Source of the DNA: Nitrospirales bacterium
GTDB taxonomy: Bacteria; Nitrospirota; Nitrospiria; Nitrospirales; UBA8639
DNA: 64,000 nt
Assembly: GCA_963692935.1 (NCBI GenBank)
Contig: OY843588.1
Coordinates: 1,699,989 to 1,763,988 of the forward strand
Reading direction: 5' to 3'
Shown: in pieces, positions 1,724 to 49,401 of the stretch
How the letters are laid out: each line of letters starts with the position of its first letter
Position numbering within the stretch: position 1 is the stretch's first letter
Program-made: the position numbers and the translations under genes
Notes under the pieces: generated by a model
What the model saw: only the letters and a program-made list of their open reading frames with translations
What the model was told of the DNA's origin: nothing
The model's database searches: none

Positions 1724-4372
1724 TCACGCCGCGCCGGTTTTCTCCATCAACTGCTGGCGCATGTCCATTCCATCGCGCTTTTTTTCCACGATAAGAAACA
1801 GTCCCTTGCCGCCACTCTGCCGCTCCCACAACTCACCGATTGTCCGCTTCTCACTGGTGTCAGCGCCACTCGCCATGAGCGCCCCCTTGTATTCCACAAC
1901 AAAACAACGCTCGTCCTCCAACAGCGCAACAAAGTCGGGATAGAACCTGTCAGTCGCGGTCGGTAGCCAGAACGAAGCACTATGACGTGCCACATTGCGA
2001 ATCCAGAACTTCAGACCTGGCAGACTGTCGAGAGCCTGAGCGCACAGACATTCCTCGCCGTCATCCGCACCGTCGAAAGCGGGAACGCAACCGGCTCCCA
2101 GGAAATGTTTGCTCGGCTTCCAGCGTCCACCATAGCGCCGTTGATCCTGATACATGCCATCACGGAACGTGAAAGCGTGGGCATGGTCAAAGGACACTTC
2201 CACCCTGGCCGCCGATTCAAAAAGACGGCTTTGATAGACATTCTTGCGTTCCTGTGAGCGAATGGCATCAATTTTATCCCTGATCCCACGCGCGAGCAGA
2301 AACTTGCAACGCATGAGCGTGGCCATGTTCATCCCGCGCACGTCGAGCAGGTAGCCAACAAGATCCCGGAGCCACCGAAGCAGTTCACCCTGGTGAAGAT
2401 CAATCTGGCGCACCTGTCGGTCGAGCCACAAGACAAGATTCTCCGATGTCCAACCCTCAACGTGAACATTGAACTCCAGTTGTTCCTCTTCTCCGGCACG
2501 CTGATAATCGACTTGACGACCATCCAGATCAATTTCAAAGTGGCGGGCCGTCTCACGAATCGCAAACTCTTTTTCATCCATTTTCCATGAATGGTGAAGC
2601 AACGACCAGTCATGGGACTCCACAAACGCAACAGAGTCGGCAAAGTCCATGACACCCTGAATCTCCGCCATGAGACGTGGAACAACAAACACGTTGCCCC
2701 GTCCGGCAGGCGACAACTGTCCCCGGTTTTTGACCCGATATTGTTTGACCTCCTCGGTGAACCCCGACCGCTCGTTTTCCGGCAATGCCACGTGAATCTT
2801 CTGCATCACCTCGTCGTTGAGTGGCCCTGTTACCGCAATTTCAATCTTCCCGTCACCAGTATCCCGTATTGTCACGCCATCAGATGTCGTCTTATGCAGA
2901 TCGGACGCAACAGCATCGTTCGCCGCGATTGTGTAAGTGAGCACAGGTTGCTGTTCCACCGTATCCCCAAACAGATCCCTCTGGTCGTCAATCCGTTTGA
3001 CGTTGTCGCGCGCCTCTTCCTCCTCAAAACCCATGGCGACCAGCTTGTCGACCAGTGCCCGTGCGGTCTCACCAGAATCCGGTTCGGACATGAAGGCATA
3101 GGCTTTATTCAAGTCCGCAATCCCGCGCCGCCTGGCATAGGGCATCCGCAACACACGGCCCAGAAGCTGCTCCACATCCACCGCGCTACGAATACGCGAG
3201 ACGGAGCAGAACACATACGCAAAAGAGCAATCCCACCCCTCTTTCAACGCCTCAACCGTGATGATGTATTCAATCCCGCATCGGGGATCAAAAAGGTCAA
3301 TGCCATCCAGTTCACGTTGAGCGCCGGTTGCAATGGCGATTTTTTCCTCCGGGATCCGCCCGTCCTCCATCAGGTGCGTCTTCAGCACATTGACCGTCAC
3401 CTCCTGATTTTTCGGCTGCGCCTGGAAAAGGACAATCGGGCGGAGATGATCGGGATCGTTCTTCGCCTTCTCCGCAAGCGAGGCGCGCGCGGCAATGGCG
3501 CCACTCACCGCCCCCTGCCAGGAATCATGCTCGGACAGCATGATCGGCAGCTTGATCATTTCCGCCGTCTTCAGCTCCTGCGCCGTAACACTGTGCAGAA
3601 TGTTATTGAGCCGGTGACCCTTCGTATCGCGCGGCGTGGCGGTGAGTTCGATAATCGCGCACGGGTTCACCCGCGCCTGCATCTCCCGTGTCAGATCCGT
3701 GACCGCATTGTGCGCTTCATCCACGATCATCAGCGGGCGGTGGATATGCAGCAGATTGGCGAAAGAAAACTTGACCTTGCCGTTTTCCATTTTTTCAAGG
3801 CCCGGCGCGGTCGCGGGCAACGTGGAGAAATGCGGTTCCATCTCCTCGTTGTGGGCATAGACCTTACGGCCTTCGGTGCCTGTCACCCGCAACGTCTGAA
3901 TGGTGCCAACCACGACGCAACAGGAGTCACGGATATCCTGCGGGCGGATCTGTGTGAAGTCCTTGATGTCAAACACCCGCACCCGACCGGCAAACGCCTC
4001 ATCCAACACCTGACGGTAGGGATGGCGCGTATTCCTGAGCGCCTCAACCGTCTGCCTGCGGATGGTGTTGGACGGCACCAGCCACACGACCATGGGATAG
4101 TCCTTTTCAATCCAGGCATCGCGTGCAATGGCAATGGCGTGGGTGCCCAGGATGGTCTTGCCCCCGCCGGTGGGTAGCCGCAGGCAGACATAAGGAACAT
4201 TGGGCAGGGCATCAAGCGGCGTGTAGATCTTCCCGTAATGTCCAAGCCGCGCGGCCTGCTCCGGTTCCGAGGTAATCGTTGTGTAGGCGTTCCCCGGTCC
4301 GACCATACGGGCCTCTTCCAGGAAGCGGCGAAGGACCGACAGGGTATCGGCCTGATATTGTTTCAGTTTCAT
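1724..4372 (-). CDS. res: Type III restriction enzyme Res subunit (SF2 helicase plus C-terminal PD-(D/E)xK nuclease)
   Basis: 882 aa. Helicase motif I is LPTGGGKT and motif II is IVDEAHN. The C-terminal nuclease-like block reads FYPDFVALL...VVEYKG. The gene starts 4 nt after the mod stop, in the usual mod-res order. Confidence 0.85.
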   Translation of the reverse strand: MKLKQYQADTLSVLRRFLEEARMVGPGNAYTTITSEPEQAARLGHYGKIYTPLDALPNVPYVCLRLPTGGGKTILGTHAIAIARDAWIEKDYPMVVWLVPSNTIRRQTVEALRNTRHPYRQVLDEAFAGRVRVFDIKDFTQIRPQDIRDSCCVVVGTIQTLRVTGTEGRKVYAHNEEMEPHFSTLPATAPGLEKMENGKVKFSFANLLHIHRPLMIVDEAHNAVTDLTREMQARVNPCAIIELTATPRDTKGHRLNNILHSVTAQELKTAEMIKLPIMLSEHDSWQGAVSGAIAARASLAEKAKNDPDHLRPIVLFQAQPKNQEVTVNVLKTHLMEDGRIPEEKIAIATGAQRELDGIDLFDPRCGIEYIITVEALKEGWDCSFAYVFCSVSRIRSAVDVEQLLGRVLRMPYARRRGIADLNKAYAFMSEPDSGETARALVDKLVAMGFEEEEARDNVKRIDDQRDLFGDTVEQQPVLTYTIAANDAVASDLHKTTSDGVTIRDTGDGKIEIAVTGPLNDEVMQKIHVALPENERSGFTEEVKQYRVKNRGQLSPAGRGNVFVVPRLMAEIQGVMDFADSVAFVESHDWSLLHHSWKMDEKEFAIRETARHFEIDLDGRQVDYQRAGEEEQLEFNVHVEGWTSENLVLWLDRQVRQIDLHQGELLRWLRDLVGYLLDVRGMNMATLMRCKFLLARGIRDKIDAIRSQERKNVYQSRLFESAARVEVSFDHAHAFTFRDGMYQDQRRYGGRWKPSKHFLGAGCVPAFDGADDGEECLCAQALDSLPGLKFWIRNVARHSASFWLPTATDRFYPDFVALLEDERCFVVEYKGALMASGADTSEKRTIGELWERQSGGKGLFLIVEKKRDGMDMRQQLMEKTGAA

Positions 4373-4375
4373 CTG

Positions 4376-5917
4376 TCAGGTTCGCGCCTTGATTTCGTAG
4401 GGCGTCTGTTTGAATGTGACCCGTTCACGGGCCAGTGTCGCGGGCATCAGGCGGGACTGTTCGCCATAGACCGTCATCGGGCCATTGAAACCGCGTTGAG
4501 CCTTGGCGGTTTTTTCACGGAGAAGAGCCAGCGTCACACGAGTCAGCACGTTGCCGCCATTCGGCCGCCTGTCGCCGAGGATGCCGTTATACAACAGCGC
4601 GTAGGCACGGCCATCGTGGATGCCAAGCAACGCCGACCGGTTTTTCCCGTTCCACGCATATCCGGTCTCACTGAACCAGACATGCGCGGCCAGCACAGGG
4701 AAACGAATGTCCCGGCAGATGTGGCCTTCTTCATCAAACACCGGCGGGCCAAGACGGTAGAAACGAAACCCGCCGCCACCTTGCCAGCCGATCATTTTGG
4801 AAATGCCGCCCTGTTCGCCGTCAATGACTTTGTTCAAGCGCGGGAGACAATGGGTGACGGTGTGCTCGCCCATTTCAATGCCGATCCAGCGACGTCCCAT
4901 CTTGTGTGCCACGGCGGCGGTGGTGCCGGAGCCGAGGAAGGAGTCGAGGACGAGGTCGCCGGGATTGGTGGCAAGTTGCAGGACGCGCTGGATGAGACGC
5001 TCGGGTTTGGGAGTGGCAAAACCGCTCTCTGCTCCGAATAGAGTATTGTTTTCCTTTTTTGCCTCCTGGTTGTGACCGACTTCTTCATTTGGCCACCAGG
5101 TCCACGCGGTAGTCCCTTCTTTTTCACTCAAAAATTGCTTCATTCGGGGTCTAGCTCTCCCGTTTTTGCCGAACCATATTTGGTTCTTCGCTATTAAATC
5201 TTTGAACGTTGCCTCTGCAATCGCCCAACAACGGCCTTCTGGAGGTTTGTGACTGATGCCACTAGGAACCTTAATTTCGTAGTATTGATCTTGCGTGGCA
5301 TGGCCCGTTTGCCCGGTAAGGTCGACAGACACCCAAGGCCCTCTCAAGTCTTTATCTGGATTCTTGTATTGCTTCTTTTGCTCGCTCGACAATTCCAATT
5401 TATTGAATTTAATTGATTGGCCATCTGTCCCATAAACCAGGATATAGTCCTGCGCCGCACCCAATCTCAACCTGGCGTCCGGGGATGTTCTTTTCTGCCA
5501 AATCACATTTGCCACAAAATTCCTGCGACCAAAAATTTCATCCATAAGCACTTTAAGATAATGCCCTTCATCGTCGTCAATGATGGTCCAGATGGAACCA
5601 TCATCGGCCAGCAGATCACGTAACAACTCCAAGCGTGGATACATCATTTCCAGCCATTGAGTATGCTCCAGGTTGTCATCGTAATGGGGAAAGTCTTTGC
5701 GTGTATTGTAGGGCGGGTCAATAAAAACACACTTCACCCGCCCGGCATAGAACGGCAACAACGACTTCAACGCCTCCAGATTGTCCCCCTGAATCAGCAT
5801 ATTCCCCGCGTACAACTGCCCCGCCGACAAGTCAGGAGCTTCTTCCAGCAGACGATAAGGAACCTTCGACGCAGCACAAAGATCTTCGTCGCGGGTCAAC
5901 CAGTTCAGGGTAGGCAT
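4376..5917 (-). CDS. mod: Type III Mod DNA methyltransferase (N6-adenine/N4-cytosine, beta-class order)
   Basis: 513 aa. The catalytic motif FIDPPYNT precedes the SAM motif VLDSFLGSGTTAAVAHKMGRRWIGIE. The start overlaps the stop of the upstream pentapeptide gene at 5917. Confidence 0.88.
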   Translation of the reverse strand: MPTLNWLTRDEDLCAASKVPYRLLEEAPDLSAGQLYAGNMLIQGDNLEALKSLLPFYAGRVKCVFIDPPYNTRKDFPHYDDNLEHTQWLEMMYPRLELLRDLLADDGSIWTIIDDDEGHYLKVLMDEIFGRRNFVANVIWQKRTSPDARLRLGAAQDYILVYGTDGQSIKFNKLELSSEQKKQYKNPDKDLRGPWVSVDLTGQTGHATQDQYYEIKVPSGISHKPPEGRCWAIAEATFKDLIAKNQIWFGKNGRARPRMKQFLSEKEGTTAWTWWPNEEVGHNQEAKKENNTLFGAESGFATPKPERLIQRVLQLATNPGDLVLDSFLGSGTTAAVAHKMGRRWIGIEMGEHTVTHCLPRLNKVIDGEQGGISKMIGWQGGGGFRFYRLGPPVFDEEGHICRDIRFPVLAAHVWFSETGYAWNGKNRSALLGIHDGRAYALLYNGILGDRRPNGGNVLTRVTLALLREKTAKAQRGFNGPMTVYGEQSRLMPATLARERVTFKQTPYEIKART

Positions 5918-7275
5918 CAGCTATCATTCTCCATTGGAACCTCCGACATGGCCTGTTCATATTCAACAATCCATCGTTCGGCCTCTTCGCTGGTGTATTT
6001 CCCCGTAACGGCACCACAGTTTTCAGGAAGACCTTTCCGGCCTTCCGGTCCAATATGCGGTTCCAGTTCACTCCTCAACTTGTTTGCCTTTTCATCGGAC
6101 AAGTCTTTGACAAAAACATCCACATCTCCCTGGCTTAATCCACCCTCGAAAACCACCTCGGACAAGTCATCCTCTGTGTCACAAAAACTGTTCATGTGAT
6201 CTTCAAAAGGCGTAAGGGATAGCAAACCATGATTCCCAGCACCGCGCAGATCCGCACGAGAAAGATCTGCCGCCTGCATCTGTGCTCCTTGGAGGCCAGC
6301 GCCTTGCAAATGTGCCCCGCGAAGATCAGCACCTTGCAGGTGTGCCAAGCGAAGATCAGCACCTTGCAAATGTGCCCCGCGAAGATCAGCACCTTGCAGG
6401 TGTGCCAAGCGAAGATCAGCACCTTGCAGGTGTGCCAAGCGAAGCCCAGTGCCTTGCAGGTGTGCCAAGCGAAGCTCAGCACCTTGCAGGCGTGCCACGT
6501 TCAGATAAGCACCTTGCAGGTGTGCCAAGCGAAGCTTAGCGCCTTGCAGGTGTGCCCTGAGAAGATTAGCGTTCTCCAAGTAAGCCCCAAGTAGAACAGC
6601 TTTACCTAAACGCGCGTCCATAAGGTCCGCTCCATTCATCCAGCTTCCCCGTAAGTCAGGGTAGCATTCTCTGAATACCTTATGTTCCTGCACGAAAAGC
6701 AGGTACAACAGGCTTTGCACTTCTTCCGAAGGCTTTGTCTTGTTTGTTTCTTGATACTTGCCTTCTCCCGTCGTCCTGCGGACATGAGCACAAAGAATGT
6801 CCAGTGCCGTCTTACGCAATTTGGAGGTATCGTCAGCCAGATGGAACAGTTCGTAGGCACCACCCAAACGCACAGAGACCGATTCATGCCCCAGATGTTC
6901 AATGGCGTTTTTCAGTCGTTCCTGCCGATGTCCCTCTTCTGTTGCTTCTGTGGCCTTGGCCTGTGCGTTTGCGGCACATTCCATCGCTTTCGCACGCTTA
7001 TGAGATGCCAAGGCTTGCAGGGCAAGCAGGATACCACCCATGCCAAGCCCCAGAAATTTCAGGACCTCGTATTTTGGGGATACGAATCCCTTTAAGCCCA
7101 AGTGCAAAGCAATCCACTCCGGCTTTTCGCACCACACGACAACCCCAAAAACCCCAACCAGAAAGACGAGCAGGACGACAAGGATGACCGTAGCAATTAT
7201 GTCAAGCCAGTCCCCCCACGTTAATCGTTCTTGCTTTTCAGTAGTCACAATGGCCCTTTTCAGCCCTGTTTCCAC
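5917..7275 (-). CDS. Membrane-anchored pentapeptide-repeat protein (2 predicted TM helices, helical linker, about 22 pentapeptide repeats)
   Basis: 452 aa. Hydrophobic stretches are IIATVILVVLLVFLVGVFGVVVW and LKFLGLGMGGILLALQAL. The linker motif VRLGGAYELFHLA is followed by tandem AHLQGADLR(L/G) decamers. The stop overlaps the mod start. Confidence 0.8.
   Translation of the reverse strand: METGLKRAIVTTEKQERLTWGDWLDIIATVILVVLLVFLVGVFGVVVWCEKPEWIALHLGLKGFVSPKYEVLKFLGLGMGGILLALQALASHKRAKAMECAANAQAKATEATEEGHRQERLKNAIEHLGHESVSVRLGGAYELFHLADDTSKLRKTALDILCAHVRRTTGEGKYQETNKTKPSEEVQSLLYLLFVQEHKVFRECYPDLRGSWMNGADLMDARLGKAVLLGAYLENANLLRAHLQGAKLRLAHLQGAYLNVARLQGAELRLAHLQGTGLRLAHLQGADLRLAHLQGADLRGAHLQGADLRLAHLQGADLRGAHLQGAGLQGAQMQAADLSRADLRGAGNHGLLSLTPFEDHMNSFCDTEDDLSEVVFEGGLSQGDVDVFVKDLSDEKANKLRSELEPHIGPEGRKGLPENCGAVTGKYTSEEAERWIVEYEQAMSEVPMENDS
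6301..6570. repeat. Nine tandem 30-bp units inside the pentapeptide gene, including a near-perfect 60-bp duplication
   Basis: The units follow the pattern (a/g)ccttgca(a/g)(a/g)tgtgcc..gcgaag.t.agc at 6301, 6331, 6361 and onward to 6541. Positions 6302-6360 are identical to 6362-6420. The repeats are in frame, and each unit encodes two pentapeptide repeats. Confidence 0.95.
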
Positions 7276-7484
7276 AGCTCCACGGCTTCAAGCAACCCTC
7301 GCAGATGTTCGTCGTGCCCGGCTACCCGCAACAGATCGGATAAATCAAATTTCCCGCGCAACTGATACACCGTCGGTCGTTTGTCGTATTCCGGCCAAAC
7401 CTTCCGCAACAACCTTATCGCCTCCTCCGCTTGAATTGGCCGACGCTCATTTCCTGGATGTAGCCGAAACAAAAGACCTTCCAA
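7260..7484 (-). CDS. Small hypothetical protein (74 aa), possibly the C-terminal remnant of a partner gene of the upstream ATPase
   Basis: The only possible start is TTG, with no in-frame ATG. It lies 19 nt downstream of the ATPase stop and overlaps the pentapeptide start by 16 nt. The amino-acid composition is protein-like (MEGLLFRLHPGNERRPIQAEEAIRLLRKVWPEYDK...). Confidence 0.35.
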   Translation of the reverse strand: MEGLLFRLHPGNERRPIQAEEAIRLLRKVWPEYDKRPTVYQLRGKFDLSDLLRVAGHDEHLRGLLEAVELWKQG

Positions 7485-7503: not shown

Positions 7504-8691
7504 TCAACCAATCTTCGGGACACCGCCGAGCACACCGAGGCGGTACTTGGGGTACAGTCTGGTGTCCCGACGCAAACCGCTTATATCCTGAACGCCGTGT
7601 ACGCGCGTCCCACCGTCCTCCCCTTTCTCGACGATAAAAAGCTCTTCCTTCTCAAGGTCGTCGAGCAAGCCAACATGGTGAGACGTCACGAAAAGCTGTG
7701 CGTTGTGGGGATTGGTCTCTTGAGACTGGAACTTGTGAAGAATCTCACCGACAATATCCACATGAAGGTTGCCGTCAATTTCATCAAAGACAGCGACGCT
7801 ACCTGTGTCCAGTGCACTGGATAATTGAGGCAACAGATGGAACAGACGTTCGGTGCCGCGGGATTCCAAGAGCAAAGGGATTGACACGTCGAGTCCATGA
7901 TGATCGAACAAGACCAGTTCCCCGTCTTTGCCATCCAGTATTTGCACATCATGTATCCCTAGATCGCCACGCTGGATGTCATGTTTGACCCGCTCTCTAA
8001 TGGCAGGCTTACTCTCTAATAGATCTATCACCATTTTGGTCGGAGGCGTCCACGGTTCGCCGTAGGTAACATTGGCGGCCACAAGAAATGCTTTAAGGCT
8101 TTGCACAATCTGCATAGCCAGAGGCACGTTGAGCATGGCAAGTGTGGCAATGACCGAGACATCATCCCGAACCGCCTTCAGTCGGTCGTCTCTTAATTTG
8201 ATCCCGAATTCGCGGGAAACGTAGATAGGCTCCCCTGGCATACCGCGATAGAACAGACGTCGCTGGCGGCCTTTGGGAAAATGAAACAGGGCTTCAGACA
8301 TTATCTGTTCACCATGTGCGGAAAGTTCATAGCGAAACAAATCCACTGTCTCACCCGGTGCCAACCAGTCTGCTTCAATCTCCACGCAAAAGCGCGTCGG
8401 TTCATCCCGTGACTTTTTCGAGAAGAAAGGCAATATAGTTTTGACGGGTGTTGCGTTTTCCATCCACGGAGTGCAGAGAACGCGGACGAGTATAACCAAC
8501 GCATGAAGCAACATTGTCTTGCCCGACCCGTTCGGCCCCATTAGCACAACGACTGAAGGAAGTCTGATATCCGGCTTGGCCACGCTCTGCCGGAAGCGTG
8601 GCAGATCGGGGGCAGTTTTCGGAATCCGAAGATCGAGGACAGCCTCTTCGCGTATTGAACAAAAGTTAGATACTGAAAATGAATGAATCAT
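7504..8691 (-). CDS. ABC-like AAA ATPase (AAA_21/AAA_15-type, as in OLD/Septu/PARIS-class defence ATPases)
   Basis: 395 aa. Walker A is MGPNGSGKT, the signature-like block is ESRGTERLFHL, Walker B is VAVFDEIDGNLH, and the H-loop is FVTSHH. No fused nuclease domain is visible. Confidence 0.75.
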   Translation of the reverse strand: MIHSFSVSNFCSIREEAVLDLRIPKTAPDLPRFRQSVAKPDIRLPSVVVLMGPNGSGKTMLLHALVILVRVLCTPWMENATPVKTILPFFSKKSRDEPTRFCVEIEADWLAPGETVDLFRYELSAHGEQIMSEALFHFPKGRQRRLFYRGMPGEPIYVSREFGIKLRDDRLKAVRDDVSVIATLAMLNVPLAMQIVQSLKAFLVAANVTYGEPWTPPTKMVIDLLESKPAIRERVKHDIQRGDLGIHDVQILDGKDGELVLFDHHGLDVSIPLLLESRGTERLFHLLPQLSSALDTGSVAVFDEIDGNLHVDIVGEILHKFQSQETNPHNAQLFVTSHHVGLLDDLEKEELFIVEKGEDGGTRVHGVQDISGLRRDTRLYPKYRLGVLGGVPKIG

Positions 8692-8697
8692 ATCGTG

Positions 8698-8726
8698 ATT
8701 GTAACGTTATTCTGTTGAGATGGCAA
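8698..8726 (-). promoter_or_regulatory. Sigma70-like promoter for the ATPase-to-res unit, implying a leaderless or very short-leader mRNA
   Basis: The minus strand reads TTGCCA, then 17 nt, then TACAAT, then cacgat, then ATG at 8691. No Shine-Dalgarno sequence lies between the -10 box and the ATG. Confidence 0.45.
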
Positions 8727-8924
8727 TATATTGCAAATTTTAGAATGAATACTTAAACACACACCGCTCGTTCGTGTATAGATACAAAATTTCCCTGCCT
8801 TGCCATTCCTGCGAAATTATCTGTTCCTAGGCCCGACCAGCGGCAGGAAATTTGTATGAGGATATTCTTTGACTTGGAAAAGAGAGAAGGAAAATGACGG
8901 GTCGAGGGGAGGGGGATCGGAAAA

Positions 8925-9062
8925 GGAATGACAGATTGCAATACCCCTCACTCCGTCATTCCCGCAACAGCGAGAGCCCAGAATCGCACCATACCGGTAC
9001 TGGAGAGTTTGGGGAAAAGGACAGATGACAAAGCCTGTATTCCTGCTTTGCACAGGAATGAC
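8925..9062. repeat. Cluster of short hairpin-forming repeats sharing a GGAATGAC/GTCATTCC core (REP-like)
   Basis: ggaatgac (8925-8932) pairs with gtcattcc (8955-8962). attcctg (9039-9045) pairs with caggaat (9053-9059), followed by ggaatgac at 9055-9062. Related copies lie at 42976-42996 and 44993-45009. Confidence 0.5.
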
Positions 9063-9165
9063 GGGCGGGGGTGTGCGAACTTGGCATATCTCAAAGAAGG
9101 GTTACTTCATTTCGTAAATTTTTGCGAGATTGAACAACGATTTCATTCCTGATCCTGGTCACGTT

Positions 9166-10086
9166 TTACCCAAACCTACAGCTCGCCCATGCGGCATTTG
9201 TCCATGTCTTCACTCTATCTAATACCTTCTTATTGATGTTGTCACTGAAATCAACAATCCGACAGCGATCAAACAGCAAGCCTCCCTCATCGACGGTTTT
9301 ATGCCAACGATCTTCGGGCAAAGCCTCTGCAACAAAAAACATGCGAACAGGGGTAAGAGGGATGGGGGAATGCATCCAGTTTGCACAAAATGAGTCAGGC
9401 CGCATATGGGTGAGTGCGTCCTCGTAGTTGGTCCCAGTCTTACACTGACCAAAAGCAATGAGTTTCCCTGCCTTGCCATCGGTAAAGCGTTTCCAAACGA
9501 CAACATCCAATTTCCCGTCCTTCGGATTCGATGATGTCTCGAAGTACTTCTCAAAACGGCCACCCTCTTTCAGTCGCTTGCAAAGGTTGTTGACCTTATG
9601 TGGAAAACTCGGCATCCCAGCAGCGGTGCCAAACACAAGGCTCTCGGCACGATTACCAAAATATTCTCGAGCTACTTCTGCAGCGAGTTCTTCGAAAAGT
9701 AGCGTGCCATCAATACCCGCGTGAAGTCTGTTGGTGCCCATATCCAGCCGGGTTGCCAGGAGCAGATATTTGTAAATGATGTATCTACGGTTTGCGGGAG
9801 CATGATCGACGTAGAGCGAGTATCCCTGATCGCCAACCACAAACGGATAACCCTCCCTACACGCTTTCTCGCGTTTCTCAATCTCCCCGTACGCTTCGTG
9901 CACTTCGCCAACCTGTGGATCTTCTTCTGGCACACCGCCAGCGTAGTCGTTGTCTTCAAGCCGACTGATATCCTGGGACAAAGCAGTCACCGACGTACCA
10001 TTGTCCCGCCAACAAACCAGCTCGGCAAAATCGCCAACTTCGTGAGCAGGTGCACGAACACTTGGTGTCCCAGGCCATTTGAACAT
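9166..10086 (-). CDS. Predicted PD-(D/E)xK (Mrr-type) nuclease-fold protein of unknown family
   Basis: 306 aa. The core reads FEELAAEVAREYFG (E132/E133) ... KDGKLDVVVWK (D194) ... FGQCKTG (Q214-x-K216), with the spacing and hydrophobic pattern typical of restriction-endonuclease-like folds. The start overlaps the stop of the ParB-like gene by 1 nt. Confidence 0.55.
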   Translation of the reverse strand: MFKWPGTPSVRAPAHEVGDFAELVCWRDNGTSVTALSQDISRLEDNDYAGGVPEEDPQVGEVHEAYGEIEKREKACREGYPFVVGDQGYSLYVDHAPANRRYIIYKYLLLATRLDMGTNRLHAGIDGTLLFEELAAEVAREYFGNRAESLVFGTAAGMPSFPHKVNNLCKRLKEGGRFEKYFETSSNPKDGKLDVVVWKRFTDGKAGKLIAFGQCKTGTNYEDALTHMRPDSFCANWMHSPIPLTPVRMFFVAEALPEDRWHKTVDEGGLLFDRCRIVDFSDNINKKVLDRVKTWTNAAWASCRFG

Positions 10087-11192
10087 CAGTTGTCTTCTGC
10101 AATACGCTGTTTTTTCCCAGGATTGTGCTTGCGTTCCATCTCCCTGTAGAGATCATCCGCAAGATTTGCCACCGTGCCAGCGATTTTTAACGTTTCCCCG
10201 GAATTGTCATAGCCTGTGGAAAGCATGCCCCGTGCCGTCTGAAGTTGTTGTTTCGCATTAAAGAGCGAGTCCTCGAAAACCGCGGATGACGGGCGGGTCA
10301 CCTCAAGAGCAGCGTCAAGGGTATCTCCAGCACGTAGGGTAGCAATGGCTTCTTTGCTGGCTACGACAGCATCAAGATACCGAAGATGCGGGTTTTGTTT
10401 CTGAACAACGGGAAGTTTATCATCTCGCTTGCTACCATACAGCCAGAGGCAAAGCTCACCGAGTTCTTTTTTCTTCTCTGGAGGGACAGGTGCCCGATCA
10501 TCTTCAGTATCTGATTGCAAACCGATAAAGGCACTGATGCCAGAGTAGGTGACGCCCGTGTACAGATGGGAGAACGAGAAATGCTTGTTCCAGCGATCGT
10601 CGCGATTGAATACCTTCAGTTTTTCTGCTTGCTCAATGATCATCAGACCTTGGAACAGTCTCTGGACGGTCTTGTGAGTATCGCCAATCTGATTCGCGAT
10701 ATCTTCAAGGCTGACATCGTAGTTGGTGTGCACCTCGGCGATGTAGCGAGCTTTAGCGTAACTGCTCCATTTGGCCGGGCCGTTCACATGCTTGAAACCG
10801 AGATAACGCCAGACACGTTTACGCTTTTCAAGCACAGCGGGAAGTGTTTGGAGTGCTTCCCTGGCTTCCCTATTGATACGAGGAACACCTGCCCGTTGGA
10901 CTTCGGTAAGTAGGGCTGGGTCCAGAAGTACTTTGACCGCGGCAAGACGACGATTCCCTTCAATAACAATGTTCTTTCCATCCTCCTGCTCAACGATCAC
11001 GGGTTCGTGGCGAAAGAACCCGCTGGTTCCGATGGACAGCACCAGTTCTTTTACATCCATCGCATCCCATAGAATTTTTATCACTTCTTTATCTGTTGCG
11101 CTGTCGGACAGGTTAAATTCCGGCAGTCTGGGATTCTTGAGATCGAATGCCAGATCCGAAACTTTCATCTCCGTGATTTTGGGGACATTCAT
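10086..11192 (-). CDS. ParB N-terminal (ParB/Srx) domain protein with a central HTH-like segment
   Basis: 368 aa. The N-terminus MKVSDLAFDLKNPRL is followed by IVIEGNRRLAAVKVL, which resembles the ParB GxxRxxA box. An HTH-like stretch reads SLEDIANQIGDTHKTVQRL. The gene overlaps the MTase stop by 4 nt. Confidence 0.65.
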   Translation of the reverse strand: MNVPKITEMKVSDLAFDLKNPRLPEFNLSDSATDKEVIKILWDAMDVKELVLSIGTSGFFRHEPVIVEQEDGKNIVIEGNRRLAAVKVLLDPALLTEVQRAGVPRINREAREALQTLPAVLEKRKRVWRYLGFKHVNGPAKWSSYAKARYIAEVHTNYDVSLEDIANQIGDTHKTVQRLFQGLMIIEQAEKLKVFNRDDRWNKHFSFSHLYTGVTYSGISAFIGLQSDTEDDRAPVPPEKKKELGELCLWLYGSKRDDKLPVVQKQNPHLRYLDAVVASKEAIATLRAGDTLDAALEVTRPSSAVFEDSLFNAKQQLQTARGMLSTGYDNSGETLKIAGTVANLADDLYREMERKHNPGKKQRIAEDN

Positions 11193-12043
11193 CGTCTTCT
11201 CCTTACAGGGAGTTGTACATAAGACGGCGTGATCAGGAGCTCCTGTGTCTGTCGCTTTCGTTGGAAGCTGTACTGGATTGGGAGACGGGAGATGGCACAG
11301 GTCGTATACATCTTTTCAATAGGGGGAACATCATCGTAAGACATGACCCATTTGAGTATGCGGTATCGTCGTACATAGCAAGCCAGTTGCCGGTGGTCAC
11401 AATCCTCGTAGAAATCCCGATAGAGGCGATTCCCGTTTGAATGATACGGAGGGTCAAGATATACAAAGGCTTGTTTCCTGCCACGCCCACGGGGCAGTTC
11501 CTTAACCAAGAACTTAATGGCGTCTTCATTAGATATGTGAATTTGCTTTCGTTTTTGCGCGATCATGCTGACTCGCTTGGCGAGGGCCTTCCGATAAAAA
11601 CGAGCATTTATTTTCCATTCCCCTGTTTGCCTGTAGCCCCCAATGGGAGCAGATCCAACCAGACCCCCCGAATGATTGCAACGATTCAGGTAGAAGGTGG
11701 AGAAGCCAAGTTCAAAGGGCTTACTGGCGTCACCACGTTCGCTGACACACAATTGCCTCTTCCATTCCGCAACACTCACTGGAACCGACAGAATCTTTTT
11801 TGCAAACCGATCTGATTCATCAAGAACAGACCGCCAGAAAGTCGTGATACGAGGATTGTAGTCGTTCAGATAAATCTCCGAGACGACACCTTTGCGAAGA
11901 AGGTGTAACGCGGCACCGGCCCCACCAGCAAACGGCTCATAGTAGGTGCAACCGGAGAGTTTGTTCTGTTCGATTATCTGAGCAAGGAAATTTGCAATTG
12001 ACGACTTTCCCCCCGGATACCTGAGTGGGCTGTCATATTGCAT
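11189..12043 (-). CDS. Dam-like N6-adenine DNA methyltransferase (D12 class, alpha order)
   Basis: 284 aa. Diagnostic blocks are LRYPGGKS, the SAM motif EPFAGGAG, and the catalytic motif YLDPPY. A GAGG ribosome-binding site lies about 11 nt upstream of the ATG. Confidence 0.88.
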   Translation of the reverse strand: MQYDSPLRYPGGKSSIANFLAQIIEQNKLSGCTYYEPFAGGAGAALHLLRKGVVSEIYLNDYNPRITTFWRSVLDESDRFAKKILSVPVSVAEWKRQLCVSERGDASKPFELGFSTFYLNRCNHSGGLVGSAPIGGYRQTGEWKINARFYRKALAKRVSMIAQKRKQIHISNEDAIKFLVKELPRGRGRKQAFVYLDPPYHSNGNRLYRDFYEDCDHRQLACYVRRYRILKWVMSYDDVPPIEKMYTTCAISRLPIQYSFQRKRQTQELLITPSYVQLPVRRRR

Positions 12044-12241
12044 ATCAGATCAACCTCTACAGTCGCCTGCCTCATTGCAAACCACCACGCCGACATGCAG
12101 GGGAGTGTCGAATAACATGAGTTTCACGCTCGCAACAGGCACGGGTGATGGTGGTGGCAGTGTCAGGATGTGGCTTGTACCAGATCGTTTGTGCAGGTTG
12201 CTCAACTCTTGCCCCTGTCACGCAATACTCAACCGTCACAC

Positions 12242-14479: not shown

Positions 14480-15019
14480 CTACCGGGAAAGATTTCCGAA
14501 ATGCGGATTCATCTCGACGAAGTGTGAACAAGCCGATTTCAACTCATGTGAAGCATGTTGCCAAAACACGACATCCACCGTGAAACCCTCCGCAACCAGA
14601 CGAGCCACCGCAGGCACATAGTCGCCATCGCCGGCCACCAGAATGAACGTATCACTGGACTTGTCAGCCTGTGTGAACGCATCTACAAACATCGCCGCCA
14701 CGATACCCGTGTCTATTTTCTTTTCTTTGTTGGCGGCACTGCGATCTTCAATGACCAGGTCAAACCCCTCGGACTTGGCGGCAGCCCACAGCGAATCGTT
14801 TGACGGCGGACGCGACCCGAACAGCATGGCCCGCTTGACATTCTGGCCATTGCTGGCGACAAACTTGTACAACTTGCCGAAGTCCAGACGGTAGGTGCGG
14901 TCAAAAATTTGACCGCTGATCGCATCACGAATGTTCAACGCAAGGCCGTTTTCCACCGCCGCGCCTCGTTGTCCTTCTATGAAAACGTTTGAGTTGTCAA
15001 CATACACGAAACCAGCCAT
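14480..15019 (-). CDS. NYN/LabA-like (PIN-like) ribonuclease domain protein
   Basis: 179 aa. Acidic motifs are VYVDNSN, KKIDTGIV and LVAGDGDY, in the order typical of NYN domains. Confidence 0.7.
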   Translation of the reverse strand: MAGFVYVDNSNVFIEGQRGAAVENGLALNIRDAISGQIFDRTYRLDFGKLYKFVASNGQNVKRAMLFGSRPPSNDSLWAAAKSEGFDLVIEDRSAANKEKKIDTGIVAAMFVDAFTQADKSSDTFILVAGDGDYVPAVARLVAEGFTVDVVFWQHASHELKSACSHFVEMNPHFGNLSR

Positions 15020-45703: not shown

Positions 45704-45791
45704 GGAGAGGTGCGAGAGTGGCCGAATCGGGCGGTCTCGAAAACCGTTGACTAGAAATGGTCCGTGGGTTCGAATCCCACCCTCTCCGCCA
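45704..45791 (+). tRNA. tRNA-Ser (anticodon CGA) with a long variable arm and encoded CCA
   Basis: The acceptor stem GGAGAGG pairs with CCTCTCC. The anticodon stem-loop is cggt-CTCGAAA-accg. The variable arm is ttgactagaaatggtc, the T-arm is cgtggGTTCGAATcccac, and the 3' end is G-CCA. Confidence 0.9.
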
Positions 45792-45849
45792 ATGTACTCG
45801 AAAAAAATGGAAGAATGACATCGCGGCAGGCAATGGCCAACAAACAGCT

Positions 45850-46860
45850 ATGGCGAATAGAAGCGGGGCAAAATTCACTTTCATAGATTTATTCGCCGGC
45901 ATTGGCGGGATACGAATCGCTTTTGAGCGGGCGGGCGGGAAATGCGTTTTCACTTCTGAATGGGACAAGGCGTGCCAACTGATGTACGTAGCAAATTTTG
46001 GAGAAAAGCCGTTTGGCGACATAACGAAACTAAATGCGGCAGAAATCCCCGACCATGATATTTTGACGGGGGGTTTTCCCTGTCAAGCGTTTAGCATAAT
46101 CGGTAACAAGTTGGGCTTTGCCGATACGAGAGGAACCTTGTTTTTCGAGATTGAGCGAATCTTAAAAGCAAAGCAGCCGAAAGTGTTTTTGCTGGAAAAT
46201 GTCAAGCAACTCACGACGCACGACAAAGGCAGAACTTTCCAAGTGATTCTGGAACGCTTGGAAAATTTGAGCTATTTTGTCCACCACAAAGTACTCAATG
46301 GACTTGATTTCGGTGTTCCTCAAAAGAGAGAGAGAATTATTTTAGTTGGTTTCAAAAAAAATCACCCTTTTGAATTCCCTAAAAATGGCATGGAAGTAAA
46401 AATGCTCTCCGACATTCTGGAGCCGGAAGATCGGATAAATAAAAGGCATTTCCTGAGTGATTATTTCCGAAAAAAACTTGAGCGAAAATTAAGAGAACAA
46501 AACAAAAAAATTACATCTCTCCCCGTGGTGTTACATGAAAATAAAGCAGGCAACATCGGAATCCATCCGTTTTCCTGCGCTTTGCGAACCAACGGCTCAT
46601 ACAACTATGTCACCGTCAATGGCAAACGACGACTTACTCCGCGCGAAATGTTGCGACTGCAAGGCTTCCCCGACACATTTGAAATCGTTGTGCCGGATAC
46701 GCAGGTTAGAAGGCAGGCAGGCAACAGCGTGGTCATCCCAAAGATTGAAACAGTTGCACACGCAATCATTAAAGCGATGAACGCAGAGCCGAGAAATAAG
46801 CCCATGCAAATTGATTTGTTTGACACGAATCAAAAAACACACAAAATATATGCACACTGA
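45850..46860 (+). CDS. dcm: DNA cytosine-5 methyltransferase (first of two)
   Basis: Motif I is FIDLFAGIGG, motif IV is GGFPCQAFS, motif VI is LLENV, motif VIII is QKRERI and motif X is GNSVVIP. The ATG at 45850 lies 59 nt after the tRNA. Confidence 0.92.
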   Translation: MANRSGAKFTFIDLFAGIGGIRIAFERAGGKCVFTSEWDKACQLMYVANFGEKPFGDITKLNAAEIPDHDILTGGFPCQAFSIIGNKLGFADTRGTLFFEIERILKAKQPKVFLLENVKQLTTHDKGRTFQVILERLENLSYFVHHKVLNGLDFGVPQKRERIILVGFKKNHPFEFPKNGMEVKMLSDILEPEDRINKRHFLSDYFRKKLERKLREQNKKITSLPVVLHENKAGNIGIHPFSCALRTNGSYNYVTVNGKRRLTPREMLRLQGFPDTFEIVVPDTQVRRQAGNSVVIPKIETVAHAIIKAMNAEPRNKPMQIDLFDTNQKTHKIYAH

Positions 46861-47911
46861 AAATATCTCAAAATCAGCGTTGGATAAGGTAATACGCAAG
46901 TCACGCGTTCATTTGTATAAACCGATTCAGATCGCGGAAATATTGTTTCATCACAGAACCCAAAAAGAGCTGCGTTTGAAGGACTTGGAATCTTATAGAA
47001 ACAGGTCAAAGCGTTGGCGTGACGAAATATCCGCACTTTTAGTCGGTCGGAAAAGCACTTCAAGCCAAAAATATCAAGACAACATTTTTGAGACCAACGC
47101 GATGCCGGTGGAATTGCTTGCACAACTCGGGAAAATCAACAAAGAAGGCAAAGGCTTTGTCGAAGCGTATATTTACAAAGCGTTGGAAAATCGGCTCTCA
47201 TCGATTCATACAGTTTACAAATATGTCAGTTCGTCGACGGCCGACAATTTTTCCCTCAAGACACTTGTCTCTTCATTTCAAACCATGCCCGGCCTTCGTC
47301 GGAGCATAGACAAGATATACGAAATTTTGGTTTACGCGCTGTTCGCGACAATCGTTCGAACGCTAAAAGCACAAGTAACGTTGGAAATTGAGAACAAAGA
47401 TAAAGAAATTTTGAAAGACTTTGAACGATTCATCAAAATGGTGATGGGAATTGACTCGGAACAAACAAAATTTGTTTTGCCAGCCGCTTTGTATCGAGTT
47501 GGAGTAACCAATGCCGCCGATAGGGGTTTGGACATGTGGGCGAACTTTGGCCCGGCGATACAGGTCAAACATCTCACACTCACGACTGAATTGGCGGAGG
47601 ATATCGCCGACACTATCACCGCCGACAAAATCGTTATCGTTTGCCTTGACACCGAAAGAGAAGTGATTGCATCGCTACTACAACAAGTCGGTTGGGGCAA
47701 GAGAATACAGGGCATTATCACAATCGGAGACTTGGACGATTGGTACAAACTTTGCTTGAACACAAAGTACCGCAATAACCTTGGAGCGGAGTTACTCAAA
47801 GACATAAGCAGGGAGTTTGCAGAGGAATTTCCTTCAAACAAAGAAATCACCCCATTTATGAAGGAGCGAGGCTATGACACCATTGTCATGCCTCATGATT
47901 GGGAATCTTAG
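46850..47911 (+). CDS. Type II restriction endonuclease, HaeII-family-like
   Basis: The N-terminus ALDKVIRKSRVHLYKPIQIAEILFHHR matches my recollection of the HaeII REase family, but I have not verified this. The gene overlaps the MTase stop by 11 nt and is followed by vsr. Confidence 0.55.
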   Translation: MHTENISKSALDKVIRKSRVHLYKPIQIAEILFHHRTQKELRLKDLESYRNRSKRWRDEISALLVGRKSTSSQKYQDNIFETNAMPVELLAQLGKINKEGKGFVEAYIYKALENRLSSIHTVYKYVSSSTADNFSLKTLVSSFQTMPGLRRSIDKIYEILVYALFATIVRTLKAQVTLEIENKDKEILKDFERFIKMVMGIDSEQTKFVLPAALYRVGVTNAADRGLDMWANFGPAIQVKHLTLTTELAEDIADTITADKIVIVCLDTEREVIASLLQQVGWGKRIQGIITIGDLDDWYKLCLNTKYRNNLGAELLKDISREFAEEFPSNKEITPFMKERGYDTIVMPHDWES

Positions 47912-47924
47912 GCTTGATTTTCGC

Positions 47925-48335
47925 ATGGACAAGGTTTCCAAAAAGAAGCGAAGTGAAATTATGTCTCGGGTACTAAGTCGAGATAGCCAAATAGAAATCT
48001 TATTTCGAAAAGAGCTTTGGAAACGAGGTTTTCGTTATCGCAAAAATTCGGGAAAGTATTTTGGAAGGCCGGATGTCGTTTTGCCGAAATACAAAACTGT
48101 TATTTTTATTGATTCATGCTTTTGGCATGGATGCAACAAACATTGCCGTCTTCCGACAACAAGAGCGAGAACATGGGAGAAAAAAATAGCGGGAAACAAA
48201 GCGCGAGATAGATTGGTGAACCGGTACTACAAGAAAACGGATTGGAAAAACATAAGAATTTGGGAACACGATCTAAAGAAGAAAGATTTCAAGTTCGATT
48301 TTAGAGAGATAAGGCGAAAGAAATCGATCTTGTGA
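47925..48335 (+). CDS. vsr: Very-short-patch repair endonuclease
   Basis: Diagnostic blocks are SRDSQIEILFRKELWKRGFRYR, GRPDVVLPKYKTVIFIDSCFWHGC and IRIWEHDL. Confidence 0.9.
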   Translation: MDKVSKKKRSEIMSRVLSRDSQIEILFRKELWKRGFRYRKNSGKYFGRPDVVLPKYKTVIFIDSCFWHGCNKHCRLPTTRARTWEKKIAGNKARDRLVNRYYKKTDWKNIRIWEHDLKKKDFKFDFREIRRKKSIL

Positions 48336-48336
48336 T

Positions 48337-49392
48337 ATGAGCGCAAGCAACAAACTAAAATCCGTGGATTTTTTTTCAGGAGCGGGCGGCTTGACGCACG
48401 GCCTGAAGGCAGCGGGGATTGCCGTTCTCGCCGGAATTGATATTGACAGCTCTTGCAAGGCGACGTTTGAAAAAAATAACAAGGGGGCCGTGTTTCTTGA
48501 AAAAGATATCTCAAAATATTCTCCAGCTGAATTGGAACGGGATTTGAAAATCGAAAAAAACGATGGCAATTTGGTTTTTGCCGGTTGCGCGCCTTGTCAA
48601 TTTTGGAGCCTTATCCAGACAAACAAGGGAAAATCCCGAAAGACCAAGAATCTTATTTGGGATTTTCAAAAATTCATCGAATATTTCAATCCTGGCTTCA
48701 TTGTGGTGGAAAATGTCCCTGGAATTTCCTCGAAGCCGGAAAGTCCAATGGAACAGTTTATTCTTACCCTTGAATCCTCTGGATATAACGTTGCGCACGA
48801 CATTATGGACATGTCTCTGTACGGTATTCCGCAAAAAAGAAAACGTTTTACTTTATTGGCATCTCGCGTTTCAGCCATTTCACTACCAAATCCAACAAGC
48901 AAGGAAACAACCGTCAGGGACGTTCTCGGCACACAAAATGGATTTCCAAAAATCGAAGCGGGCGCAAGAGACGAAACAAGCTTTCTACATACCGCCGCAG
49001 GCTTAAGCAAAAAAAACTTGGAACGCTTGCGAATGACGGAGAAAAACGGCGGAGACAGATCGAATTGGCAAAACAAGAAAGCCTATCAACTGCCTTGTTA
49101 TGCTTCCAGCAAAAAAAAATTCCCCGATACTTACGGTCGCATCTGGTGGGATAAGCCTGCTCCGACAATCACCACAAAGTTTCTCAGCATTAGTAACGGT
49201 CGTTTCGCTCATCCAGCGGAAAACAGGGCTATCTCATTACGAGAGGGAGCGACCTTGCAGACCTTTCCAAAATCTTACAAGTTTGTTGGAACAAGTACGG
49301 GTTCTATCGCAAAAATGATAGGCAATGCCATTCCTCCGAAATTTGCGAAGTTAATCGGAAGACAAATTGTAAGGTCCGCCCAAAAGGTATAA
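48337..49392 (+). CDS. dcm: DNA cytosine-5 methyltransferase (second)
   Basis: Motif I is VDFFSGAGG, motif IV is GCAPCQFWS, motif VI is VVENVPG, motif VIII is QKRKRF and motif X is GNAIPP. The gene starts 1 nt after the vsr stop. Confidence 0.92.
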   Translation: MSASNKLKSVDFFSGAGGLTHGLKAAGIAVLAGIDIDSSCKATFEKNNKGAVFLEKDISKYSPAELERDLKIEKNDGNLVFAGCAPCQFWSLIQTNKGKSRKTKNLIWDFQKFIEYFNPGFIVVENVPGISSKPESPMEQFILTLESSGYNVAHDIMDMSLYGIPQKRKRFTLLASRVSAISLPNPTSKETTVRDVLGTQNGFPKIEAGARDETSFLHTAAGLSKKNLERLRMTEKNGGDRSNWQNKKAYQLPCYASSKKKFPDTYGRIWWDKPAPTITTKFLSISNGRFAHPAENRAISLREGATLQTFPKSYKFVGTSTGSIAKMIGNAIPPKFAKLIGRQIVRSAQKV

Positions 49393-49401
49393 ATTCGCAT
49401 C

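Follow-up and report, generated by a model that had tools for sequence, protein, structure and literature searches.

Three overlapping minus-strand genes were analysed in a 64,000-nt stretch of the Nitrospirales bacterium assembly GCA_963692935.1 (contig OY843588.1; hereafter the window, whose coordinates are used throughout). In order of transcription they encode a D12-class DNA methyltransferase (MTase), a ParB/Noc/KorB-like protein with a predicted helix-turn-helix (HTH), and a third protein that is probably a PD-(D/E)xK nuclease. The cassette is a three-gene relative of the defence system PD-λ-5 that has not been described before; it is new in architecture, within an already known kind of system. 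On balance, we favour reading the trio as one horizontally mobile, restriction-modification (RM)-like anti-phage cassette, a sister of PD-λ-5, in which the MTase would mark self DNA, the ParB-like protein would sense unmarked DNA and the third protein would cut it. For this cassette we infer defence activity, nucleoside triphosphate (NTP) binding, sensitivity to methylation, nuclease activity and a complex between the ParB-like protein and the nuclease.

An earlier note on this DNA had described the trio as a single operon with 4-nt and 1-nt overlaps, and the exact open reading frames (ORFs) bore this out. The MTase stop and the ParB-like start overlap in ATGA at 11189–11192 (junction read GACGATGAATG), and the ParB-like stop and the start of the third gene have base 10086 in common within TGATG (junction read CAACTGATGTTC). 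The low GC content that had been put forward as a sign of acquisition (about 47–50% vs about 60%) was measured at 0.49–0.51 over 9–12 kb vs 0.58–0.61 in both flanks; the low-GC block is wider than the cassette and runs over ~5–12 kb. A sigma-70 scan for promoters and terminators gave no site at 12044–12241, and sites in the scanned region did not exceed the shuffled expectation.

The MTase carries the motifs EPFAGGAG and DPPY and was matched by Pfam MethyltransfD12 (PF02086) at 3.1e-18, in agreement with its earlier description as a D12-class adenine MTase. It was matched over residues 1–279 by the PADLOC profile PD-Lambda-5_B (PDLC04018; 2.7e-97, profile positions 1–276 of 291), and its closest solved structure was 7m6b (4e-20). 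E. coli Dam and T4 Dam were absent among its matches to solved structures at E ≤ 0.01, so GATC specificity is not to be assumed. Palindrome frequencies in the window (GATC, CATG and others; observed/expected 0.8–1.1) gave no signal of an MTase target.

The ParB-like protein was modelled with AlphaFold2 (AF2) at a mean predicted local distance difference test (pLDDT) of 79.5. Foldseek matched the model to structures of Noc, KorB and ParB with CDP or CTPγS (7nfu, 8qa9, 6sdk, 7bnr and 6t1f), Noc 7nfu at E 1e-6 and all at E 1e-6 to 4.5e-4 with probability 1.00, over ~250 columns that span the N-terminal nucleotide domain and the HTH. The family profile searched against the PDB aligned VIEGNRRLAAVK to H. 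pylori Spo0J LIAGERRLRASK; EGNRRLAA falls on AGERRLRA (GNRR on GERR), and both arginines are kept. NCBIfam parB_part matched at 8.7e-7, below the cutoff of that model, and the first ~180 residues matched PADLOC PD-Lambda-5_A (5.3e-23, profile positions 13–187 of 473). The ParB-type N-terminal domain and HTH claimed in the earlier note were thus upheld by the AF2 and Foldseek results, the family profile, parB_part and PD-Lambda-5_A, but not by the Pfam search that it had proposed. The window protein had no Pfam match at all, ParB_N (PF02195) included, and ParB_N matched weakly in 6 of 43 relatives (best E 0.0094). A phmmer search of the protein against the PDB returned nothing, whereas the profile and fold searches did match.

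Residue conservation in this protein and in the third protein was read from alignments of orthologues (43 members). The P-motif EGNRR, counterpart of the ParB GERR box, is invariant in the ParB-like family, in homologues from P2-like phages and in true PD-λ-5A proteins. The NPR box (N20-P21-R22) is likewise invariant, as are the arginines of both motifs, and an invariant Asn (N80) stands where GERR has Glu. The putative recognition helix of the HTH, IGDTHKTVQRLF, is almost unchanged between loci with an orthologous, a divergent or no linked MTase, and is different in the phage homologues linked to cytosine-5 (C5) MTases. The all-helical C-terminal domain brought no PDB fold match of its own, and Pfam had no significant match in any of the aligned family members; the domain may serve dimerisation or docking of the nuclease. 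An R197-x6-H204 pair in it resembles the HEPN Rx4-6H motif; this candidate was rejected, since hhalign found the region unrelated to the PD-λ-5A C-terminus and Pfam gave nothing.

In PHROG the ParB-like protein falls in phrog_3694 (2.3e-79; no function assigned). It has more than 3340 homologues; the best 120 are 359–374 aa long (nearly all 366–368) and, apart from the protein itself at 100%, 63–70% identical to it. Mean column identity was 80% for the ParB-like protein vs 64% for the third protein. By these alignments the ParB-like protein is the most conserved of the trio, a pattern more in keeping with a central part in the mechanism than with regulation.

The third protein, the predicted effector, had no match in Pfam, NCBIfam or PADLOC, so the searches of nuclease families proposed for 9166–10086 came back empty. 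Its PHROG assignments were phrog_14650 (2.5e-16) and phrog_3984 (1.1e-6), neither with an assigned function. PDB sequence matches of the protein and of its family profile (AAV Rep, superantigen-like proteins, antibody light chains) were discarded as spurious. The AF2 model (pLDDT 75.5, predicted TM score 0.81) has a well-modelled N-terminal half with weak winged-helix-like matches, followed by a probable Mrr-like core. Foldseek matched the model to VC1899 (9.3e-4), MspJI (probability 0.98), the nuclease domains of Can2/Card1, and EcoO109I, and to viral proteins named 'Mrr domain' and 'restriction endonuclease' at E 0.02–0.06. The E...D194...Q214-x-K216 core of Mrr type claimed in the earlier note fared well within the family, where all 43 orthologues keep D194, Q214 and K216, and less well beyond it: K216 is lost in phage homologues, and the fold matches are weak. 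When the phage homologues (~20% identity) were included in the alignment, the invariant residues were D19, E22, R72, Y80-P81-F82, D190, D194, Q214, W261, D273, R274 and R276. On its residues and model, the third protein is a probable PD-(D/E)xK nuclease. It has 988 homologues of 305–331 aa. The wider family comprised 2051 clusters at 50% identity, of which the best 150 listed were 121–407 aa long (most about 300–340) and had no obvious fusion to another domain.

The cassette is widely distributed. A one-genome-per-species scan found relatives of the ParB-like protein in 455 species, and the best 80 of these were compared as loci. They cover at least a dozen phylum-level groups, among them Latescibacterota, Acidobacteriota, Chloroflexota, Binatia, Rhodothermales, Spirochaetia, Alpha- and Gammaproteobacteria, Nitrospirae, Lentisphaerae, Planctomycetes and Desulfobacterota, at 55–68% protein identity. 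The nuclease gene lies directly after the ParB-like gene in all 80 loci, its start a few bases from the ParB-like stop (4 nuclease copies are truncated). Pseudomonas yangonensis MY50 (L061) is the sole cultured strain among the loci, and L054 is a MAG contig labelled Klebsiella. In 54/80 the gene immediately upstream of the ParB-like gene encodes an orthologous D12 MTase (counted at ≥45% identity), and a divergent D12 MTase (25–30% identity) is nearby in a further 12, so that a D12 MTase is adjacent in 66/80. Chance adjacency, which had been named as a possible refutation of the unit, was not borne out. An MTase was undetectable in the remaining 14 loci, 2 of which are at contig ends. In the MTase-less loci, searches for another MTase class (C5, type III Mod and HsdM seeds; Pfam on flanking ORFs) found none, ORF calls in high-GC metagenome-assembled genomes (MAGs) being unreliable and limiting this search; the ParB-like and nuclease genes were the sole neighbours conserved between these loci.

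More distant pairs were found in an accessory locus of P2-like phages, where a ParB-like gene and a homologue of the third gene are followed by a convergent C5 MTase. The phages with the pair were Wphi, P2, HQ103, vB_EcoM-12474 and Pseudomonas D14A. Their ParB-like proteins (357–372 aa, ~30% identity) align by tblastn over residues 5–355, the C-terminal domain included; their third-protein homologues (299–341 aa, ~20% identity) were matched by BLASTP at 2e-8 and 2e-6. These pairs (phrog_3694 with phrog_3984; Wphi gp98/gp96, P2 OU784549 genes 1–2, vB_PaeM-D14A) form the same two-gene unit with an MTase adjacent, and their partners keep D19, E22, D190, D194 and Q214. They differ from the window cassette in lacking K216, in the HTH recognition helix, and in the MTase, which is convergent and C5-type in the phages but co-directional and of the D12 adenine type in the window. 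Because the P2-like loci pair with a C5 MTase, the ParB-like protein and nuclease appear as a restriction-like pair that is kept while the class, position and orientation of the MTase vary. All of the P2-like pairs were annotated as hypothetical, and no functional data on them were found. In Yersinia phage L-413C (L008, 207–1199), a ParB-like gene with an altered C-terminus stands with neither partner nuclease nor MTase; this is probably what is left of a P2-type module after decay.

PD-λ-5, described as 'ParB/HEPN, methyltransferase', came from a selection on the E. coli pangenome and was validated in E. coli (Vassallo et al. 2022, PMC9519451). Its protection was broad, among the broadest in that screen, and its authors described it as a compacted prophage combination of RM and abortive infection (Abi) (PMC9519451). 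The host had to be Δmrr (PMC9519451), which is consistent with active methylation. HHsearch by the same authors gave ParBc at 96% probability and a C-terminal DUF4145/HEPN domain at 35% and 8% (PMC9519451). No published account of its mechanism was found in the literature searched.

The window cassette shares with PD-λ-5 an orthologous D12 adenine MTase (PD-Lambda-5_B over its full length), a ParB-type N-terminal module with NPR, EGNRR and the start of the HTH, an association with mobile DNA, defence islands or prophages, and presumably an RM-like logic. Alignment of the ParB-like family with the PD-λ-5A family by hhalign gave a probability of 99.8% and E 1.6e-29 over ~176 columns, and no homology beyond residue ~184 of the ParB-like protein. 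In the canonical pair of Marinobacter phage AS1 (AS1_27, 486 aa, with AS1_26), AS1_27 matches the PD-Lambda-5_A profiles nearly full length and belongs to phrog_9592, likewise with no assigned function, vs phrog_3694 for the window type; by BLASTP, residues 16–195 of the ParB-like protein alone were aligned to it. R385 and H458, conserved in the PD-λ-5A family, have no counterpart in the ParB-like protein. Two further canonical PD-λ-5 loci consist of A (456–480 aa) and a D12 MTase; all of the canonical loci compared (L009, L091 and L092) hold A and B only, with no nuclease gene. PD-λ-5 thus has two genes, A (about 450–500 aa) and B, whereas the window has three coupled genes in the order MTase, ParB-like, nuclease. 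Where PD-λ-5 A carries a fused C-terminal DUF4145/HEPN-like domain, the 368-aa protein of the window has an unrelated helical C-terminus. The predicted effectors differ accordingly: a separate PD-(D/E)xK-like DNase, whose gene is obligatory, in the window and a HEPN RNase in PD-λ-5.

The suggestion in the earlier note that the trio belongs to no named defence system therefore needs qualification: the trio's MTase and ParB N-terminal module fall within PD-λ-5, while the locus has neither the fused DUF4145/HEPN domain nor the two-gene layout of that system. The third gene and the architecture were not found in the libraries or literature searched, including searches on PDC-M38, on ParB with methyltransferase and HEPN, and on a ParB N-terminal domain with an adenine methyltransferase. 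Annotation pipelines would probably either overlook the third gene or wrongly call the locus a two-gene PD-λ-5.

In the mechanism that we favour for the cassette, the D12 MTase would place N6-methyladenine (m6A) on a motif throughout the host genome and so mark self DNA. The ParB-like protein, with its NTP switch and HTH, would act as the sensor and engage unmarked DNA, probably under NTP control. It would then recruit or license the coupled PD-(D/E)xK partner, and foreign DNA would be cut. The ParB-like protein and nuclease would form the restriction half, and the MTase an exchangeable protective half. A part in sensing and effecting, rather than in regulation, is favoured for the ParB-like protein because the ParB module is fused to an effector domain in PD-λ-5, because this protein is the most conserved of the trio, because it was never found parted from the nuclease, and because its recognition helix differs between the D12-linked and C5-linked groups.

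Several results weigh against this mechanism. The catalytic region of the third-protein model has pLDDT values of only 50–68, the nuclease fold matches are weak (best E about 9e-4, TM score 0.2–0.3), and K216 of the QxK motif is invariant solely within the orthologous family. The ParB-like and nuclease pair occurs with no detectable linked DNA MTase in 12/80 genomes, mostly in apparently intact form, which an obligate RM logic accommodates poorly unless those hosts are protected by an unlinked MTase. Several of these 12 genomes are complete MAG chromosomes. The HTH helix does not change between loci with D12 MTases of only 25–30% identity, which makes it hard to assign recognition of the target sequence to one protein. 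The Glu of GERR is the catalytic residue in established ParB work, and with Asn in its place NTP turnover may differ from that of ParB. Finally, nucleotide specificity is unpredictable from sequence (PMC12704722). The invariant helix within the D12-linked group, the 12 MTase-less pairs and the Asn for Glu leave room for an autonomous effector resembling GmrSD or SspE, or for protection by an unlinked methylase.

Such an autonomous effector, type IV-like or triggered by infection, would work independently of the absence of m6A, and the MTase would be a separable addition with a role such as shielding the DNA from other nucleases or a separate epigenetic role. A ParB-superfamily NTPase with a nuclease is the type IV architecture of GmrSD, BrxU and SspE (PMC12065111, PMC12373910). 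The likeness extends to GmrSD/BrxU, SspE (in SspABCD-SspE) and the Menshen protein NsnA, in all of which an NTP-binding sensor of the ParB/Srx superfamily is coupled to a nuclease; Ssp, like this cassette, also joins a DNA-modification module to such a sensor and nuclease. The MTase-less pairs, the Mrr-like nuclease motif and the modification-dependent MspJI among the fold matches point the same way. However, GmrSD, BrxU, SspE and NsnA belong to the DUF262 branch (DGxQR) and have His-Me/HNH or other effectors, usually fused, whereas the window cassette is of the ParB/Noc/KorB type (EGNRR with HTH, not the DGQQR of DUF262), has a separate predicted PD-(D/E)xK protein and would use an m6A mark. 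Pfam GmrSD_N matched 1 of 43 relatives at E 0.11, and the GmrSD-type fusion of DUF262 to HNH is not seen here, the nuclease being separate and non-HNH. The adjacency of a D12 MTase in 66/80 loci, with the orthologue fixed upstream in 54/80 and translationally coupled in the window, and the MTase directly beside the pair in the phage versions also speak against a separable addition. We regard an autonomous effector as unlikely.

We likewise give little credence to an ordinary type II RM system in which the ParB-like protein is a transcriptional controller (a C-protein analogue or KorB-like repressor) that times restriction relative to modification. KorB and VirB provide examples of ParB-fold NTP switches acting as transcription regulators (PMC10770331), and KorB was among the Foldseek matches. 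The gene also stands in the position of a C-protein gene, and an invariant HTH is what a conserved operator would lead one to expect. However, a C protein is roughly a quarter as long as this 368-aa protein, whose conservation also exceeds that of the enzymes supposed to be under its control; the pairing with the nuclease persists where the MTase changes class, sits on the opposite strand or is absent; and the same module is fused to an effector domain in PD-λ-5. An inverted-repeat search upstream of the operon found no conserved operator-like repeat and none above the shuffled expectation.

A third explanation, that the locus is simply the already-named PD-λ-5 with an unrelated or accessory neighbour as third gene, has already been largely refuted and is improbable. 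Its basis is the pair of profile matches on adjacent genes (PD-Lambda-5_B 2.7e-97, PD-Lambda-5_A 5e-23), on which an automated annotator might label the locus PD-Lambda-5. Yet the A-profile match and the hhalign homology both end within the first half of the protein, whereas AS1_27 matches nearly full length and has a different PHROG; canonical loci have no nuclease gene; and with the third gene right after the ParB-like gene in 80/80 loci, its position there is no accident.

A plasmid or prophage partition remnant with an orphan ParB, suggested by the ParB fold with HTH and by sources that name some relatives 'ParB/RepB/Spo0J family partition protein', is refuted in practice: no ParA was found among the window ORFs at 5–17 kb (as the earlier note had observed) or as a conserved neighbour in the related loci compared (the search covered ParA but not parS), the conserved neighbours are nuclease and MTase only, and most of the loci shown sit on chromosomal contigs of megabase size, with only 5 matching plasmid records in PLSDB. 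The earlier reading of the trio as a single, acquired, RM-like operon with an integral ParB-type protein is supported.

The favoured mechanism has a more speculative extension, which we hold tentatively and think less likely than not to hold in full. In it the ParB-like protein would be a true NTP-gated clamp. Its HTH would load it onto DNA where methylation is missing, and from there it would slide or spread and bring in the nuclease; the ParB(EGNRR)-HTH module would be a portable sensor of unmarked DNA with swappable effectors and MTases. Resemblance to the ParB, Noc and KorB clamps lies in the best structural matches, the arginine pair of the P-motif and the layout of N-terminal domain, HTH and helical C-terminus; the differences are the lack of ParA or partition context, Asn for the Glu of GERR, and an unrelated C-terminal domain. 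CTP binding and clamp behaviour are properties that we only infer for this protein. If the extension is true, the cassette would represent a class of restriction enzyme that uses a ParB-style nucleotide switch and not a helicase or translocase motor, and it would extend ParB-type switches, so far placed in segregation, nucleoid occlusion and transcription, to the discrimination of self and non-self DNA. The module would then be found fused to a DUF4145/HEPN-like domain in PD-λ-5 and beside a separate PD-(D/E)xK protein here, with D12 adenine or C5 MTases. The cassette shows the ParB-type module of PD-λ-5 to be the constant core of a larger family, around which effectors and methylases can be exchanged. 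It gives a cleaner experimental entry to the PD-λ-5 family, since assays are simpler for a stand-alone DNase than for a fused HEPN domain that is only weakly predicted.

The window and P2-phage ParB-like proteins also matched PADLOC PDLC04607 (PDC-M38A, 715 positions) at ~58–342. Other PDC-M38A models match AAA ATPases, which suggests a further architecture in which a ParB module is joined to an ATPase; no literature on PDC-M38 was found.

Table 1. Positions of the cassette, its parts and neighbouring features in the window, and the loci that show particular arrangements.
Feature	Position	Strand	Remarks
D12-class (Dam-like) N6-adenine DNA MTase, 284 aa	11189..12043	-	PD-Lambda-5_B orthologue; predicted self-marking (protective) component
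ParB/Noc/KorB-like protein, 368 aa	10086..11192	-	N-terminal NTP-switch domain, HTH, family-specific helical C-terminal domain; predicted DNA sensor and nuclease partner
Box II / P-motif E78-G79-N80-R81-R82	10947..10961	-	counterpart of ParB GERR
HTH DNA-binding region, residues 144-191	10620..10763	-	predicted; helices H144-158, H162-169 and H173-191 in model, within Foldseek-matched columns
All-helical C-terminal domain, residues ~200-368	10089..10595	-	common to P2-phage homologues, not PD-λ-5A
Partner protein, 306 aa	9166..10086	-	well-modelled N-terminal half and probable PD-(D/E)xK (Mrr-like) core; predicted effector
Putative catalytic core D190-G-K-L-D194 ... Q214-C-K216	9439..9519	-	candidate alpha-1 acidic residue E22 at 10021-10023
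Upstream region, 198 bp	12044..12241	-	sucD stop to MTase start; GAGG Shine-Dalgarno; presumed promoter region
Spacer downstream of trio, 474 bp	8692..9165		nested inverted repeats
Inverted-repeat arms in spacer	8893-8909/8944-8960; 8925-8938/8949-8962; 8909-8922/8936-8949		
AAA_21/ABC-type ATPase	7504..8691	-	PADLOC AbiLi 3.9e-60
74-aa ORF	7260..7484		minus strand; follows the ATPase gene
Type III RM	1724..7275	-	
res-like ORF, 882 aa	1724..4372	-	
Type III Mod	4376..5917	-	PADLOC MTase_III 3.6e-181
Pentapeptide-repeat protein, 452 aa	5917..7275	-	Pfam Pentapeptide 1.4e-30; upstream of mod
NYN-domain protein (predicted RNase), stand-alone	14480..15019	-	Pfam 3.2e-19; between sucC and a flavoprotein gene
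tRNA-Ser(CGA)	45704..45791		
Low-GC block (GC 0.42-0.44)	46-51 kb (window 45704-51000)		directly after tRNA-Ser(CGA)
Trio within type I RM operon	L002-L004, L014, L017, L024, L036, L058, L063, L070		
MTase-less pair loci	L030, L032, L035, L041, L052, L073 (Alphaproteobacteria); L056, L081, L088 (Gammaproteobacteria); L039		
MTase-less pair loci, pair truncated	L029, L082		

At least 10 genomes have the trio inserted in a type I RM operon, with hsdS on one side and hsdR on the other, and in the window the trio adjoins a type III RM and an AbiLi-like ATPase; the hsdS/hsdR insertion and the type III RM and AbiLi-like neighbours are typical of a defence-island context. Where Bryobacterales MAGs carry the trio inside such an operon, hsdS has a Fic gene upstream.

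In the window, the stop of the pentapeptide-repeat gene overlaps the mod start by 1 nt; type III systems do not usually share an operon with such a protein. The AAA_21/ABC-type ATPase was considered as a fourth component of the cassette and rejected, being absent from all 90 loci in the neighbour comparison; with the 74-aa ORF it may form a separate AbiL-like system. The ATPase, the pentapeptide protein and the type III Mod were all absent from other loci, except for a short, distant Mod-like match in L042. The inverted repeats in the spacer downstream of the trio are built on GGAATGAC/GTCATTCC and may be a repetitive extragenic palindromic (REP)-like element or a terminator. Further away, a stand-alone NYN-domain protein is encoded on the minus strand, and the low-GC block that starts directly after tRNA-Ser(CGA) looks like a second acquired island.

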